Shown: positions 38,851 through 45,425 of the stretch, in pieces
Position numbering within the stretch: the first letter of the stretch is position 1
Layout of the letters: each line of letters begins with the position of its first letter
IMG/VR virus record: IMGVR_UViG_3300034095_001584
Source: a virus
Lineage: Duplodnaviria; Heunggongvirae; Uroviricota; Caudoviricetes
DNA length: 64,000 nucleotides
Reading direction: 5' to 3' (one strand)
The notes under the pieces: generated by a model
The model's input: only the letters and a program-made list of their open reading frames with translations
Database searches by the model: none
What the model was told of the DNA's origin: nothing
Program-made: the position numbers and the translations under genes

Positions 38851-38926
38851 TGGTGGACCGTGCTGGACTTGAACCAGCAACCGAAGAATTATGAGTTCTC
38901 TGCACAAACCATTATGCTAACGGTCC
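38851..38926 (-). tRNA. tRNA-Met/Ile2 (anticodon CAT), 76 nt, CCA encoded
   Basis: hand fold: GGACCGT/ACGGTCC acceptor, D stem GCAT/GTGC, anticodon loop CTCATAA, T arm GCTGG-TTCAAGT-CCAGC. Confidence 0.75.
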
Positions 38927-38949
38927 ATTAAAATTACTATTACTAAAAC

Positions 38950-39025
38950 TGGAGCGATATCTCGGACTTGCACCGGCCTTGTGGACTGGAAGGTCTACCG
39001 TGCTCCTCATAGACACTAATATCGC
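38950..39025 (-). tRNA. irregular tRNA-like gene, anticodon unresolved
   Basis: perfect 7-bp acceptor GCGATAT/ATATCGC plus CCA; D arm GTG-N10-CAC like its neighbour; weak T stem; no clean anticodon stem. Confidence 0.3.
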
Positions 39026-39033
39026 ATTAAAAA

Positions 39034-39106
39034 TGGAGCGGGTCCGAACTTTGCATTTCGCCTTTTAGTCTGGTAGACTAACGTGCTCTCTTTACACCTG
39101 ACCCGC
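39034..39106 (-). tRNA. tRNA-like gene, 73 nt, anticodon read as ACC (Gly?) - uncertain
   Basis: acceptor GCGGGTC/GACCCGC, T70, CCA; anticodon stem TTAGT/ACTAA with loop CTACCAG; 4-bp T stem with 8-nt loop ATGCAAAG. Confidence 0.4.
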
Positions 39107-39443
39107 ATATTAAATCAAAATAGGAAGGACTAATGATTACCTCCAAGTTTCAGAATCACGACTGGTTATTCATCCACAGTCCACACGGGTAATTACTCCT
39201 TGTGTTAATGACTGATGGGATTTTGTTTTCCCCACAACGGGCTACGATTTATCATATATTTTAGCTACGGTCCCGTTACGCTCAAATTTGGGGTTGAACG
39301 ACCTCAAATTCTCCATAGACTTACCCCCCATGATTCCTACTCCAACCAATATACAACGTTTTTCAACGCCATATATTGTGCGTTACAACTAAACTAATCG
39401 TTGTTCCGCCACTATCTTAAATTGTTAAAGAACTATCAAAAAA

Positions 39444-39721
39444 TGGTAGGCGTGAGTGGATTCGAACCACCGCTTTACAGATTTTCGTACCACTATAATT
39501 TTCATTACACATTTCTGTTTTGTGGTCTGGACTTTCTCTTCATCATAACATTTCTGTTTTAGATGTTTGCCGTTAAGTCTCTACACCTTCTCATTTCTGA
39601 GCTTGGCTCGGGATTGGCAGTTAAGCTTTCCCCGAATTTGACAAATTCTACTTTAGAGATTTCTCTCTAAGCACTCAATTTACGCTAAAGTCTGTTGACT
39701 CTTCCGCTGGTCTACACGCCC
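39444..39721 (-). tRNA. split tRNA gene (anticodon UAA, class I) interrupted by ~202-nt intron after U34
   Basis: 5' exon 39721..39688 holds acceptor GGGCGTG, D arm with GG, anticodon 5' stem ACAGA and CUU; 3' exon 39485..39444 holds AAAA, TCTGT, AAAGC, GGTGG-TTCGAAT-CCACT, CACGCCT, A, CCA. Confidence 0.6.
39486..39687 (-). ncRNA. putative group I intron in tRNA anticodon loop
   Basis: exon ends in U, intron ends in G; intron GAGU can pair with exon ACUU giving a U.G P1 helix; no ORF inside. Confidence 0.4.
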
Positions 39722-39806
39722 ATTTAAATTACTTACAAAGAACTATTACTTACTACTCTTTCATCTTATCACATCATCCTCTGATGTCAACTGGTTTTTC
39801 AAAAAA

Positions 39807-39890
39807 TGGTGGCTATGGAGGGACTTGCACCCCCACGGTTTTACCCACGGCTTTTTGAGAACCGCATGTCTTCTATTCCATCACATAGCC
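39807..39890 (-). tRNA. tRNA-Leu (anticodon CAA), class II with long variable arm, CCA encoded
   Basis: acceptor GGCTATG/CATAGCC, anticodon stem CGGTT/AGCCG with loop CTCAAAA, 14-nt variable arm, T arm GGGGG-TGCAAGT-CCCTC. Confidence 0.65.
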
Positions 39891-39898
39891 ATTAAATT

Positions 39899-39975
39899 TG
39901 GTAGTCCAGGTGGGGATTGCACCCACGACCTCACCCTTATAAGGAGTGTGCTCTGACAAACTGAGCTACTGGACC
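39899..39975 (-). tRNA. tRNA-Ile (anticodon UAU), 77 nt, CCA encoded
   Basis: acceptor GGTCCAG/CTGGACT (G1.U72), D arm GCTC-AGTTTGTCA-GAGC, anticodon loop CTTATAA, T arm GTGGG-TGCAATC-CCCAC. Confidence 0.65.
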
Positions 39976-40075
39976 ACTAAAGTTTTTTAAAGAACTAAAT
40001 TGTTGAATTCTTAGTTACAGAGTTTATTCTGTATGCAATAGTCACTACGTGCAAGTGATTCAACTTTGACTATCT

Positions 40076-40147
40076 AGCGGGGGAGGGAATCGAACCCCCT
40101 ACCTTCCGGTTATGAGCCGGACGATCTATTCCGTTGATCTACCCCGC
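40076..40147 (-). tRNA. tRNA (anticodon CAT), no encoded CCA
   Basis: acceptor GCGGGGT, D arm GATC-AACGGAATA-GATC, anticodon stem TCCGG/CCGGA with loop CTCATAA, T arm GGGGG-TTCGATT-CCCTC; one acceptor/T junction irregularity. Confidence 0.6.
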
Positions 40148-40439
40148 AAATTGTTTTGTTAAAGAACTAACTAAAATCGGTGTGGTTTATTTAAAGTCCA
40201 AACCACAAAATTACTAATGTTCACTTCAACATTAACGAGTTTCTTCTACCTTTGAAACTTCATTTTGAATGAGATTTTTAATCTAAGGTAACCAATCTCA
40301 ATTAACCTAAAATCATCTTATCACACATTGATGTTTTGTCAACATCTAAAATTGTCGCCGGTCTTTTAATTGGCGCTTTAATCCTCTGGTGGGGAACCAA
40401 CTCAAGTGTCCTATTAATCGGATATTCTCCGGGCGTAAA

Positions 40440-40515
40440 TGGTAGCTATGACAGGAATCAAACCTGTATATTCCATCTTATGAGGATGGCGCATCAATCA
40501 TTCTGCCACATAGCC
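40440..40515 (-). tRNA. tRNA (anticodon CAT), 76 nt, CCA encoded
   Basis: acceptor GGCTATG/CATAGCT (G1.U72), anticodon stem CCATC/GATGG with loop CTCATAA, T arm ACAGG-TTTGATT-CCTGT. Confidence 0.7.
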
Positions 40516-40522
40516 ACTGAAA

Positions 40523-40573
40523 TGGTCGCTCGCCTAAGAATCTCACTTAGTTACCAATGGTTATGAGCCATCG
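40523..40573 (-). pseudogene. truncated tRNA, 3' half only (CAT anticodon arm, T arm, acceptor 3' strand and CCA; no 5' half)
   Basis: GATGG-CTCATAA-CCATT, CTAAG-TGAGATT-CTTAG, GCGAGCG-A-CCA present; no complementary 5' acceptor or D arm within 60 nt. Confidence 0.4.
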
Positions 40574-40799
40574 TCAAATAATAACCTGCCGCCAGCTGTT
40601 TAAATTTAAAGAACAAATTAAAAATTGTGTTGGATGTGTTTATTGAATACTTTATCCACCCAACAAACAAAGTATACCATGACTCATCCCCGCAACCAAG
40701 AAGTTTTTTCAGAGACTTCCAACTCTAGGGGTGTTTTGGTTATTTACCCTCCACCAATCAGTTTTGTCTTCTGGACAACTGATCAACCAGAAATATATA

Positions 40800-41522
40800 T
40801 TACTCTATATTTAGTTTAGAGTCAACAAAATCTTTCAATTTTCTTACTCCTTTGCCTGAACAAACTCTTGAACAATATTGAAATTTAGCTGGCTTTCCAC
40901 AACATAAACATTTATTGTTTTTAACATTATGTGGATTTCCTTCATAAAGTTCAATGAAATTTTTCCCATATTTGGACTCTACATATTTAATTATAGGTTT
41001 AATTTCGTTTTTGTCAACCACTAAAATTTTTTCTGTAAAGTATTTTTGTTTATTTTCAAATTCTTTTTCTTTGTACCCTTTTATTTCAACATAAGTTTCT
41101 GACTCAATCAAATAAAAATCTGGATAATATTTAGAAACTTTTCCTTTTGTGTTTATATAATCAAATGATTTAGTATTGCGATTAAATCTTATATTAAGAT
41201 CAATTGAATAAATTACCCATGCTAATTCATAACTGCTATTACAGAATATACCTTTATACCATCCAGACTTTGATCTACCCGATCCCAGTCTAGCTCCACC
41301 GGATTTTCCTTTGAAAAATCCTTTATCTCTAGCTAACTCTTTACATTGCAAAGAACAGAATTTTCTTTTGTCAGACGGCCTAAGATACATTTTTTTATTA
41401 CATTCTACACAATGCAGAATTTTCTTTTCTTTTTTAGAAAGAATAAATTTATCTGGGTTTAATCTGACCAACTCTTTTAGTTTGTTTTTTATTTTTAATT
41501 TAGTTTCTTCAGAGTGTTTCAT
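40800..41522 (-). CDS. free-standing homing-endonuclease-like protein (NUMOD3-type motif, terminal zinc ribbons, possible PD-(D/E)xK core)
   Basis: HSEETKLKIKNKL resembles NUMOD3; CVEC...CSLQC and CLCCG...CSRVC; DFYLIESETYVEIKG; sits inside tRNA cluster. Confidence 0.45.
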   Translation of the reverse strand: MKHSEETKLKIKNKLKELVRLNPDKFILSKKEKKILHCVECNKKMYLRPSDKRKFCSLQCKELARDKGFFKGKSGGARLGSGRSKSGWYKGIFCNSSYELAWVIYSIDLNIRFNRNTKSFDYINTKGKVSKYYPDFYLIESETYVEIKGYKEKEFENKQKYFTEKILVVDKNEIKPIIKYVESKYGKNFIELYEGNPHNVKNNKCLCCGKPAKFQYCSRVCSGKGVRKLKDFVDSKLNIE

Positions 41523-42023
41523 ATCAATAAATAGTATGAACCCCTCTCAAACTATTGATTATTTTTGTCTTAAAAATGGTATCCCATAGCGGTGCTGCCC
41601 CGCTTTCTCCGGAGTGAAAGTCCAGTGATCTAGCTGATAATCTAATGGGACAATAAATTGGTAGGGCCTGACGGTAACGATCCGTCTTCCAGGGATTAAA
41701 AGTCCCTTGCTTCACCATTAAAGCTTAGACCCCATTAAAATTTGTTAAAGAACTTACTACAAAGTCATCTTACTACACATTCTTCTTTTGTCAACTATTT
41801 CTTTGTTCTTTGTTGGTGACTCCCTTTGATTAAAGGTCAAGGCAGTTCCGCCATACGTAGATGTTCTAGAGGAGTGCTTCTCCCACCATGCTGAAAGAAC
41901 AAAGAATCGTTTACTTACTACTTCTTTATCTTACCACTAAGTTTTCAAAGATCAACTTCTTTTTTCAAGAAGTTTTGAGGTAAATTATAAATATAATGAA
42001 ATATTCAAATTTTACCAGAAATT

Positions 42024-42099
42024 TGGTGTCCCCACCAGAAATCGAATCTGGATCATTCGCTTAGAAGGCGAATGCTCTAACCATTTGAGCTATAGGGAC
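42024..42099 (-). tRNA. tRNA-Arg (anticodon UCU), 76 nt, CCA encoded
   Basis: acceptor GTCCCTA/TGGGGAC, D arm GCTC-AAATGGTTA-GAGC, anticodon stem TTCGC/GCGAA with loop CTTCTAA, T arm CCAGA-TTCGATT-TCTGG. Confidence 0.8.
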
Positions 42100-44903: not shown

Positions 44904-45425
44904 TTACAGATTAATATATAATTTCTTGCCATCCTGACCACTATACTTGAATCTGGTAACAGGCACAGATAGGCTTAATCCTTCTTTGATATGAGGAAAC
45001 TTGCCTTTTTGTACATAAGCCACCGTCATGTGTGGTTTATAATCTGGATATTTATCCTCATTCTTATAACAATCACATCTACGTCTTATTTCAGATAGTA
45101 TCTCATTCTTTTCCACATCAAACTTGACCACATCATACTTTTCATTTTGAAATTGGGTTAAACCAGTAAGTTTAACAACAAATGGTTTGATACCTTGTAG
45201 GATAGTGGCTAAATTAGCCCTTGTTAAGTCAGGAGAATAACCATACTTAGCTGTAATGTGTGGTTCATCATCATAACCATAGGTACTGTCATTTGGATCT
45301 GTATAAAGAATTTGTGGTGGTATTACTGTTTTACCAAATTTAATGATGTGTGGTCCTCTGGTTGGTTCAACTATAGCCATTAAACAACCAAATTCATTGT
45401 GTCTATTTTCTGTAATCAAGTTCAT
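44904..45425 (-). CDS. 2H phosphoesterase (LigT/2',3'-cyclic phosphodiesterase-like)
   Basis: two HxTx motifs (PHITAKYG and PHMTVAYV) ~75 aa apart in a 173-aa protein. Confidence 0.6.
   Translation of the reverse strand: MNLITENRHNEFGCLMAIVEPTRGPHIIKFGKTVIPPQILYTDPNDSTYGYDDEPHITAKYGYSPDLTRANLATILQGIKPFVVKLTGLTQFQNEKYDVVKFDVEKNEILSEIRRRCDCYKNEDKYPDYKPHMTVAYVQKGKFPHIKEGLSLSVPVTRFKYSGQDGKKLYINL

Follow-up and report, generated by a model that had tools for sequence, protein, structure and literature searches.

What is a tRNA gene doing in two pieces, with 202 nucleotides (nt) of other sequence lodged in its anticodon, in the genome of a tailed phage? The gene lies on the minus strand of a 64,000-nt stretch of viral DNA (Caudoviricetes; IMG/VR record IMGVR_UViG_3300034095_001584), which we call the window and always mean at its full length. 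An initial annotation, made from the letters alone, had matched the two halves by eye and proposed that a group I intron parts them. The halves read as it described, and the split gene is confirmed:

39688-39721, minus strand: tRNA exon 1, sequence GGGCGTGTAGACCAGCGGAAGAGTCAACAGACTT (ARAGORN on the joined exons)
39486-39687, minus strand: group I intron of 202 nt, beginning with T and ending with G (Rfam RF00028)
39444-39485, minus strand: tRNA exon 2 with the CCA encoded, sequence AAAATCTGTAAAGCGGTGGTTCGAATCCACTCACGCCTACCA (ARAGORN on the joined exons)

The explanation we prefer, at a probability of about 0.88, is a phage tRNA(UAA) gene, very probably for a type I tRNA-Leu, interrupted between U34 and A35 by an IC3-like group I intron of 202 nt that holds no open reading frame (ORF).

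The split gene, its junction and its intron

Exon 1 supplies the 5′ strand of the acceptor stem (GGGCGUG), U8 and A9, the D arm, the 5′ strand of the anticodon stem (ACAGA) and then C32, U33 and U34, its last base being the U of the U.G pair in intron helix P1. Exon 2 takes over with A35, A36, A37 and A38, the 3′ strand of the anticodon stem (UCUGU) and a 5-nt variable loop, AAAGC, and runs on through the T arm, the 3′ acceptor strand (CACGCCU), A73 and the encoded CCA. ARAGORN folds the joined exons as a cloverleaf, a 76-nt tRNA(taa) with a 7-bp acceptor stem, a G1.U72 pair, A73, CCA and a 5-nt variable loop. With default settings the program finds seven tRNA genes in the window and misses this one. 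In intron mode on the genomic sequence it does detect the split gene, as had been hoped of an intron-aware search, with the junction one base off: it calls a tRNA-Phe(gaa) with an intron at 33/34. The proposal of a group I intron of about 202 nt was borne out by an Rfam scan of the whole window, in which Intron_gpI (RF00028) is the sole non-tRNA match, at 39697-39505 on the minus strand, with 74.8 bits against a gathering score of 50 (E=3.8e-17). The match spans model positions 1-253 of 253 and is not truncated. Just one ORF touches the intron, a 53-amino-acid (aa) frame on the plus, antisense strand (39401-39562) that extends out across exon 2, and the claim that no ORF lies within the intron also stands.

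The exact boundaries are fixed by alleles that lack the intron. A 30-nt probe across the predicted spliced junction (CAACAGACUU-AAAAUCUGU) matched 4 viral and 17 metagenome contigs. In 15 of these contigs the gene is uninterrupted, identical at 76/76 positions to exon 1 plus exon 2 and embedded in flanks homologous to the window's; they are intron-minus alleles in sister phages. One of them (L377) is identical at 60/60 nt directly downstream and 97% identical over 505 nt, with a similar upstream promoter region. What the 15 alleles lack is exactly 39687-39486, 202 nt, and they read ACTTAAAATC, not ACTGAAAATC. They thus define both the inserted segment and the mature loop, CUUAAAA, and with them the 34/35 site and the anticodon UAA that the initial annotation had deduced.

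How does the inserted segment fold? We drew helices P1-P10 by hand from the Rfam alignment and the known architecture of tRNA introns, then tested them on an alignment of the window with 25 relatives less than 90% identical to one another (26 sequences), to which the counts in this part refer. The thermodynamic minimum-free-energy (MFE) fold of the intron alone recovers P2, P4, P5, P6a, P8 and P9 (z = -2.15). The parts of the intron are as follows:

39673-39676, minus strand: internal guide sequence GAGU (intron nt 12-15), pairing with exon A31-C32-U33-U34 to form P1
39678-39677, minus strand: UU just 5′ of the guide, able to pair with exon 2 A35 A36 as P10
39653-39670, minus strand: P2 hairpin, 7 bp with a GAAA tetraloop; compensatory changes at all 7 pairs, also in the MFE fold
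39640-39645 (5′ strand) and 39571-39566 (3′ strand), minus strand: P3, 100% of cells paired, 4/5 pairs compensatory
39585-39635, minus strand: P4-P5-P6/P6a domain; P4 99% paired, P5 and P6a covary, two P6 pairs invariant
39581-39576, minus strand: P7 5′ strand (G, bulged A, GACU), 5 pairs invariant in 26/26
39533-39529, minus strand: P7 3′ partner AGUCC, complementary to the 5′ strand
within 39566-39581, minus strand: J7/3, between the P7 5′ strand and the P3 3′ strand
39541-39565, minus strand: P8 hairpin with internal loop UCUAAA/UAUGA and a GAAA loop; covariation in both helical segments
39490-39525, minus strand: P9 three-way element, closing helix CCAC/GUGG plus two small GAAA hairpins (fold alignment and MFE)
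39486, minus strand: terminal G (omega-G), preceded by UAC, downstream of P9

The core can indeed be folded, as the initial annotation had supposed. Over 59 pairs, standard pairs fill 95.4% of cells, and sliding the partners by 1-3 columns lowers this to 30-43%; 34/59 pairs show changes on both sides, and 0/500 shuffles reached the observed values. Covariation is seen in P2, P3, P5, P6a, P8, P9 and P9b. Invariant are the five P7 pairs, two P6 pairs and the U.G, U-A and C-G pairs of P1 (26/26), the A-U pair of P1 being kept in 19/26 sequences and the two U-A pairs of P10 in 24/26. The GACTT that ends exon 1 does not vary at all among the 26 sequences, and all 26 have G before the 3′ splice site, so that both signatures read by eye, a P1 of ACUU with GAGU carrying the U.G pair and a G at the end of the intron, are constants of the family. 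The intron bears every computed mark of group I: a score above the gathering threshold, a P3-P9 core with the P3/P7 pseudoknot, and the combination of the P1 U.G pair with omega-G. GAAA loops cap P2, P6a, P8 and both P9 hairpins, and the internal loop of P8 appears, by analogy, to resemble an 11-nt tetraloop receptor. The predicted guanosine-binding pair we take to be G109-C158 (intron numbering), by analogy to other group I introns. We describe the intron as being of the tRNA-Leu(UAA) type and IC3-like, a label that comes from its architecture and its similarity to tRNA-Leu(UAA) introns, the Rfam model being a general one.

Splicing would then proceed as follows. The split gene would be transcribed from its own promoter-like site in the tRNA cluster, the intron would fold to its P3-P9 core, and the guide GAGU would pair with exon ACUU to make P1 with its U34.G pair. 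Free guanosine would attack after U34, and the freed 3′-OH of U34 would attack after the terminal G at 39486 while P10 and the anticodon stem hold the exons. With CUU joined to AAAA, RNase P trimming would yield a 76-nt tRNA, its CCA already encoded, that would decode UUA (and UUG), the phage's most used Leu codons.

The short-armed tRNA family and its amino acid

Type II tRNA-Leu is recognized by a variable stem-loop of more than 10 nt. The window tRNA, with its loop of 5 nt (AAAGC), does not have one; it has instead the marks of a type I tRNA-Leu, namely the 5-nt variable loop, a Leu anticodon, U8-A14 and G18G19. The initial annotation saw the short loop correctly and took it for an oddity of this gene. 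It is the defining trait of a large phage tRNA(UAA) family and no anomaly. An uninterrupted short-armed tRNA(UAA) pattern matched at least 120 viral contigs, and among the matches listed ARAGORN called 120/120 as tRNA(taa) of 73-78 nt, with 112 distinct sequences. Cultured phages have the type too, and most of their records annotate it as tRNA-Leu: Prochlorococcus phages P-SSM7 and P-RSM6, Synechococcus phage S-CREM1, Rhizobium phage P106B, Bacillus phage P59, Rhodococcus phage Trina and Lactobacillus phage LP65. The P-SSM7 tRNA is 73 nt long and bears the annotation 'codon recognized: UUA'.

We aligned 32 distinct short-armed tRNA(UAA) genes of viral contigs, the window's spliced product among them. 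The cloverleaf is 97.9% paired, as against 32-48% in slid controls, and 16/22 of its pairs show compensatory changes. Even the tertiary 15-48 pair covaries, as A-U in 23 and G-C in 7 of the 32. U8, A9, C12, C13, A14, G18, G19, A46, G47 and A73 are invariant (32/32), the variable loop always fits NNAGN (32/32), and G1.U72 is the commonest first acceptor pair (21/32). C13 stands opposite A22, an invariant mismatch that accompanies the invariant A46 G47. These three peculiarities (G1.U72, the C13/A22 mismatch and A46 G47) may be identity or folding elements of the phage tRNA family. Together, the 15 contigs with an uninterrupted 76/76 gene, the cloverleaf covariation (32 members) and the covariation in the intron fold (26 sequences) exclude a chance origin for the two halves and what lies between them.

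Is it a leucine tRNA? Synteny, codon use and family features all point that way. In sister phages that share an identical neighbor protein and homologous flanks with the window, the same slot is taken by an ordinary tRNA-Leu(UAA) of 88 nt. A CAA anticodon is found on the short scaffold as well (L066, L128 and L104), and in L128 the arrangement is the mirror of the window's: short CAA with long UAA, where the window has long CAA with short UAA. The window tRNA has the acceptor end G1.U72/G2-C71/G3-C70/C4-G69/A73 in common with the long-armed Leu tRNAs of sister phages, and on other contigs a stem GGGAGCG/CGCUCCU is common to short- and long-armed UAA tRNAs.

Codon use tells the same story. The window is 32% G+C, and in its 22 long ORFs UUA accounts for 39% of Leu codons and UUG for 33%. 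The window encodes a carbamoyltransferase with about 40% identity to its counterparts in marine phages and cyanophages; its UUA codons align with Leu in 37% and with L, I, V, M or F in 73% of cases (five phage homologues), similar to CUU, and at near-invariant Leu columns the window uses UUA 7 times and UUG 7 times. UUA at conserved Leu columns means the standard code, with UUA read as leucine, and on this codon-position evidence we rejected reassignment of UUA. There is a cellular precedent for a leucine tRNA of this shape. The tRNA-Leu(CAA) of Streptomyces coelicolor is type I, with the variable loop A44-C45-A46-G47-C48, and is leucylated by its own leucyl-tRNA synthetase (LeuRS) (PMC6614811). 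The same study implies that LeuRS enzymes restricted to type II need the leucine-specific domain of the Streptomyces enzyme if they are to charge a type I tRNA-Leu (PMC6614811).

Relatives, mobility and rival explanations

Megablast of the locus, and of a 20-kb stretch around it, against 50,697 phage records gave no match, and at the DNA level the window genome has no close cultured relative. In its distant mode, blastn against phage records did find homologues of the intron, in LR756501 (a 735-kb uncultured phage; 79%) and in the Agrobacterium jumbo phage Atu_ph07 (73%), where they split a long-armed tRNA-Leu(UAA) at the same CUU/AAAA site. Both split genes are unannotated: in LR756501.1 (about 190250-190530; our L001) the group I intron is 205 nt long and in Atu_ph07 (MF403008.1, about 112890-113250; L002) 278 nt. 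A 'hypothetical protein' annotated in Atu_ph07, AUZ94936.1, runs over the intron's 3′ end together with exon 2; it is probably a spurious call. An Rfam scan of LR756501 and Atu_ph07 at the gathering threshold returned no Intron_gpI, despite the clear homologue in each. Because Rfam missed both, we took the census with an 18-nt probe from the P7 core and ARAGORN in intron mode.

The probe found matches in at least 120 IMG/VR contigs. Among the matches listed, 86 of 125 core sites (hence at least 86) sit within split tRNA genes; 57 of these 86 genes are called UAA, and about 15 UAA-type genes, counting GAA miscalls, have a mature length of 73-78 nt, like the window's. The initial annotation held an intron of this kind in a phage tRNA cluster to be unusual, which is fair to the searchable literature and wrong for the sequence record, given at least 86 tRNA genes in IMG/VR contigs split by introns of the same core. 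Junctions from ARAGORN can be off by 1-3 nt, and we re-derived them by two rules, U before the 5′ splice site and G as the last base of the intron. On viral contigs, introns of this core then split Arg(UCU) at 33/34 and 34/35, Lys(UUU) at 34/35, Lys(CUU) at 35/36, Met(CAU) at 33/34 and 36/37, and Ala(UGC), Thr(UGU) and Ser(UGA) each at 34/35. Examples of these non-Leu genes are L051, L063, L050, L027, L049, L115, L046, L071 and L093 (within L010-L124). For some calls on viral contigs (SeC/UCA, Pyl/CUA, 'Stop'/UUA, His and Pro), a few of which would suggest anticodons that read stop codons (UCA, CUA, UUA), the two rules gave no junction, and we do not claim them. The window's own intron is 77-79% identical to its nearest relatives in other tRNAs.

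Related introns also turn up in protein genes: a pelagiphage and a deep-sea podovirus contig have their capsid genes split in this way. In Pelagibacter phage HTVC120P (L003) the gene is annotated as two 'capsid protein' coding sequences with a group I intron between them (1464-1654), and in uvDeep KM23-C739 (L004) the capsid gene has two group I introns (1448-1628 and 2157-2337; 78 and 77 bits). In bacteria, a degenerate version of the core, run against contigs of one genome per species, met at least 120 loci, with 100 split tRNAs among the matches listed. Among those matches the UAA-type hosts are long-armed in 61/61 cases, and the pairing of a short-armed tRNA with this intron was met only in viral sequence. 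The nearest bacterial introns listed, about 0.66-0.69 identical, come from alphaproteobacterial metagenome-assembled genomes, and at 0.66-0.69 they are too distant to point to the phage's host.

The clearest view of how the intron behaves comes from sister phages (L125-L129), which carry an identical copy of the window's 240-aa neighbor protein and flanks 95% and 87% identical. The slot after tRNA-Leu(CAA) is filled in L126 by the window's allele; in L125 by the window's exons, bar one D-loop base, around a 258-nt intron; in L127 and L128 by an ordinary, uninterrupted 88-nt tRNA-Leu(UAA); and in L129 by a long-armed tRNA-Leu(UAA) that is split at 33/34 by another intron, of 355 nt. The L018 and L125 alleles have a 56-nt insertion in the P9 element, and the intron-plus allele is unchanged in the independent assemblies L066 and L126. 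As a whole the slot (about 4400-6100 in L125-L129) is a mosaic of five alternative cassettes, three of which have a free-standing GIY-YIG (SegE-like), HNH_3 or unknown ORF just upstream. From one sister phage to another, the CAA and the UAA tRNA each alternate between a short-armed and a long-armed version. Another intron lineage (GGGTCCATAC...GTGTAAATTCGGTGAACGGG...) interrupts tRNA-Met(CAU) and tRNA-Leu(UAA) after U33 (33/34), at 5330-5697 in L125 and 5587-6029 in L129.

Intron and exon similarities do not run in parallel. Introns 93-96% identical reside in short- and long-armed hosts whose exons are 46-61% identical (intron/exon identity 0.96/0.46 for L113 with L075 and 0.96/0.61 for L117 with L033), and L015 and L109 have identical introns in exons that are 88% identical. 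Because near-identical introns occupy hosts with divergent exons, and intron-plus and intron-minus alleles share identical exons, the intron is best seen, on this comparative evidence, as a mobile selfish element that moves between unrelated tRNA(UAA) scaffolds. Of the marks of a mobile intron, presence/absence polymorphism and intron-exon discordance are both present; an endonuclease encoded in the intron or immediately beside it is missing in the window. The GIY-YIG and HNH genes directly upstream of the slot in sister phages suggest endonuclease-driven exchange of cassettes or 'collaborative' homing, which has been described for the psbA intron of cyanophages.

Could the locus be something else? 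ARAGORN in intron mode reports tRNA-Phe(gaa), split at 33/34, for the window and for the corresponding alleles of L066, L018, L125 and L126, and a 5-nt variable loop with A73 would be normal for an ordinary short-armed tRNA-Phe whose first exon ended at U33 and whose second began with G. With that junction the intron would have to end in C and the mature loop to read CUGAAAA, and neither is found; G ends the intron in 26/26 sequences, the P1 U.G pair would be lost, the 15 intron-minus alleles contradict GAA, and a CTTAAAA loop recurs in 112 distinct uninterrupted members of the family. We rejected the junction, and it has next to no chance of being right. A decayed intron that no longer splices, in a tRNA gene that has become a dispensable pseudogene, is a somewhat better proposition and still a poor one. 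Splicing is, after all, a deduction; the window intron is fairly divergent (77-79%); and sister phages manage with another tRNA-Leu(UAA) cassette or an intron-less allele, so the window's copy is not indispensable to the lineage. Yet every element of the core is intact, with the family's invariant positions kept in P7, J8/7, the G-binding pair, the terminal G and the U.G pair; the intron-plus allele recurs unchanged in L066 and L126 (L018 and L125 differing by the P9 insertion), the exons are 76/76 identical to those of uninterrupted alleles, and the tRNA serves the phage's most used Leu codon. Only slightly more credible is a short-armed tRNA(UAA) that carries another amino acid or acts outside translation, as decoy, primer or regulator. 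Bacterial LeuRS normally meets a long-armed tRNA-Leu, G1.U72 is unusual and yet conserved (21/32), charging of family members is a matter of deduction, and, by the Streptomyces work, a LeuRS without a suitable leucine-specific domain does not charge type I tRNA-Leu (PMC6614811). Against this, UUA stands at conserved Leu columns, and placing a different residue at some 3% of codons would do great damage; the gene replaces a canonical tRNA-Leu(UAA) at the same position in sister phages; and the scaffold exists in a CAA version, with A73 invariant and a Leu-like D loop, GGNAGA.

A different kind of proposal, which sits comfortably with an intron-split tRNA-Leu, is that the intron is kept for some benefit to the phage and not merely tolerated. 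It might abolish the DNA site that a free-standing homing endonuclease, active in these tRNA clusters, would recognize, delay or gate the supply of the UUA-reading tRNA, or, by leaving the anticodon loop unformed until splicing, limit host anticodon nucleases. The GIY-YIG (SegE-like) and HNH genes directly upstream of the sister slot, the mosaic of cassettes in it and the presence of this core at several anticodon-loop positions in many phage tRNA types speak for such a role. Close phages in which intron-plus and intron-minus alleles with identical exons coexist are what a neutral or selfish element would be expected to produce, and the window has no adjacent endonuclease, its sole candidate being 1.08 kb off and of weak similarity; we think benefit doubtful, if less so than the readings above. 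Several points do weigh against the explanation we prefer. P1 is just 4 bp long and its A31 is also required by the anticodon stem; the Rfam model leaves P7 unannotated, and our P7 is drawn from complementary strands that never vary, which agree with the fold and say nothing on covariation. Splicing, aminoacylation and the leucine identity are argued from sequence, no homing endonuclease is encoded in the intron or beside it, and the Streptomyces work indicates by analogy that not every bacterial LeuRS would charge a type I tRNA-Leu (PMC6614811). A phage tRNA-Leu gene split by a mobile group I intron nevertheless remains much the best account of the locus.

The gene lies in a tRNA cluster (38851-42099, minus strand), whose other members are Arg(UCU), Lys(UUU), an aberrant tRNA-like sequence, three CAU tRNAs, Ile(UAU) and Leu(CAA), a set that matches A/U-rich codon use. 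Two features bear on the split gene:

39763-39790, minus strand: promoter-like TTGACA-16 nt-TAAGAT with an upstream TG, some 40 nt ahead of the split tRNA (consensus match only)
40800-41522, minus strand: 240-aa ORF, 1.08 kb upstream of the split gene with four tRNA genes between

The promoter-like motif recurs before other tRNA units, at 40315-40342 and 41767-41794 (minus strand), and its repetition suggests several independent transcription starts within the cluster. The 240-aa ORF is the candidate for the homing endonuclease that had been placed next to the intron, a claim that found no support: the ORF is not adjacent, it has no Pfam or PDB match, and its PHROG 'endonuclease' match is weak. 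CxxC...C motifs mark its two ends, with a PD-(D/E)XK-like stretch (YPDF...VEIKG) in the middle, and five further viral contigs matched by the intron-core probe encode weak homologues. Public assemblies contain the identical protein in 342 indexed blocks, which makes the phage lineage a common one. The aberrant tRNA-like sequence (41580-41651, minus strand) scores 39.4 bits with Rfam and has no ARAGORN call; by eye it has an anticodon loop CUUUCAC (UUC, Glu-like) and a T loop GGCAGCA instead of TTCGA. Some 3 kb from the cluster, a 173-aa ORF (44904-45425, minus strand) has a 2H phosphoesterase or 2′-5′ RNA ligase-like domain (PF13563, E=2.9e-10) and a weak Acb1-like match, and could serve RNA repair or cyclic-nucleotide cleavage.

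Significance and comparison with known systems

The practical lesson concerns annotation. Default tRNA finders miss the split gene, intron-aware ARAGORN misnames it tRNA-Phe, and the homologues in Atu_ph07 and LR756501 went unannotated; with split genes missed or misnamed in this way, phage tRNA repertoires are undercounted. The locus is of interest for its phage context, for the short-armed tRNA-Leu that acts as host, for a clear polymorphism in which the intron is present or absent, and for showing how large a population of split phage tRNAs lies hidden. The window, its intron-minus alleles and the alternative cassettes amount to a natural system for the spread of ORF-less introns, and the intron, compact with its 202 nt, is a candidate for work on ribozymes. 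If the host LeuRS charges the short-armed tRNA(UAA) family, the rules of leucine identity reach beyond the textbook long-arm picture.

A broader view can be offered only tentatively, and we would sooner bet against it as a whole than for it. Phage tRNA clusters might be a large, overlooked reservoir and vehicle of tRNA group I introns, in which one lineage hops between unrelated scaffolds (short- and long-armed Leu, Arg, Lys, Met, Thr, Ala and Ser) at several anticodon-loop positions, perhaps aided by free-standing endonucleases; this could possibly explain the patchy distribution of tRNA introns across bacterial phyla. The short-armed tRNA-Leu would then be a widespread, phage-borne exception to the long-arm rule, implying that many host LeuRS enzymes accept it.

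In the literature we could search, with most subscription journals outside our reach, we met no paper that describes group I introns in the tRNA genes of bacteriophages, or short-armed tRNA-Leu in phages. A 2014 review located all the phage introns known at that time in protein-coding genes, for all the tRNA genes that phages have (PMC3984707), and phages lay outside a 2026 survey of 333 group I introns in bacterial tRNA genes (PMC13011429). The part of the Lak megaphage study available to us (Devoto et al., bioRxiv 10.1101/356790) reports introns within phage tRNA genes, as here, presents them as not previously described in phages and maybe common in large phage genomes, and differs in that they are called 'enigmatic', are not, in that part, assigned to group I, and lie in tRNAs for Phe, Gly, Thr and Tyr. 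The classical phage introns (T4 td, nrdB and nrdD; the DNA polymerase genes of SPO1 and Bastille; Twort) share with the window's the group I type and a tailed-phage carrier; they too are present in some relatives and absent from others, and the genomes concerned have homing endonucleases associated with them. They differ in splitting protein-coding genes, in belonging mostly to other subgroups and, in many cases, in bringing their own endonuclease.

Small ribozymes of bacterial chromosomes are another parallel. The introns of Azoarcus tRNA-Ile(CAU) and Agrobacterium tRNA-Arg(CCU) are, like ours, about 200 nt long and set in the anticodon loop, and in these small IC3 ribozymes, as in ours, GAAA loops cap P2 and the P9 region, P5 is short and P8 is receptor-like. 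Their site is after position 36, in other tRNAs. A further parallel is the tRNA-Leu(UAA) intron of cyanobacteria, plastids and other bacteria (the IC3 type of Anabaena/Nostoc PCC 7120), which has the same U34/A35 site, CUU/AAAA, a P1 formed by CUU with a GAG guide, the same conserved core, and the same compact, ORF-less build of about 200-250 nt. The 34/35 site is documented for bacterial tRNA-Leu introns (PMC13011429), and the 18-nt P7 core also retrieves split tRNA-Leu(UAA) genes in cyanobacteria, Alphaproteobacteria and Acidobacteria. The window departs from these in its carrier, a phage, and in a host tRNA with a 5-nt variable loop, the bacterial hosts listed being long-armed without exception (61/61).

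For the host tRNA itself the parallels are the tRNA-Leu(CAA) of Streptomyces coelicolor and the tRNA-Leu(UUR) of animal mitochondria, leucine tRNAs that likewise have a 5-nt variable loop and are cellular or organellar and without an intron. The Streptomyces loop, ACAGC, fits the NNAGN pattern of the phage family, and U8-A14 is an identity element of the Streptomyces type I tRNA-Leu (PMC6614811). A73 is dispensable in Streptomyces (PMC6614811), whereas it is invariant in the phage family, where G1.U72 predominates. Set against these systems, what is new at this locus would be the phage carrier and the type I tRNA-Leu host; the type of intron, its site and its core are known, and the mechanism we propose is ordinary for the class.

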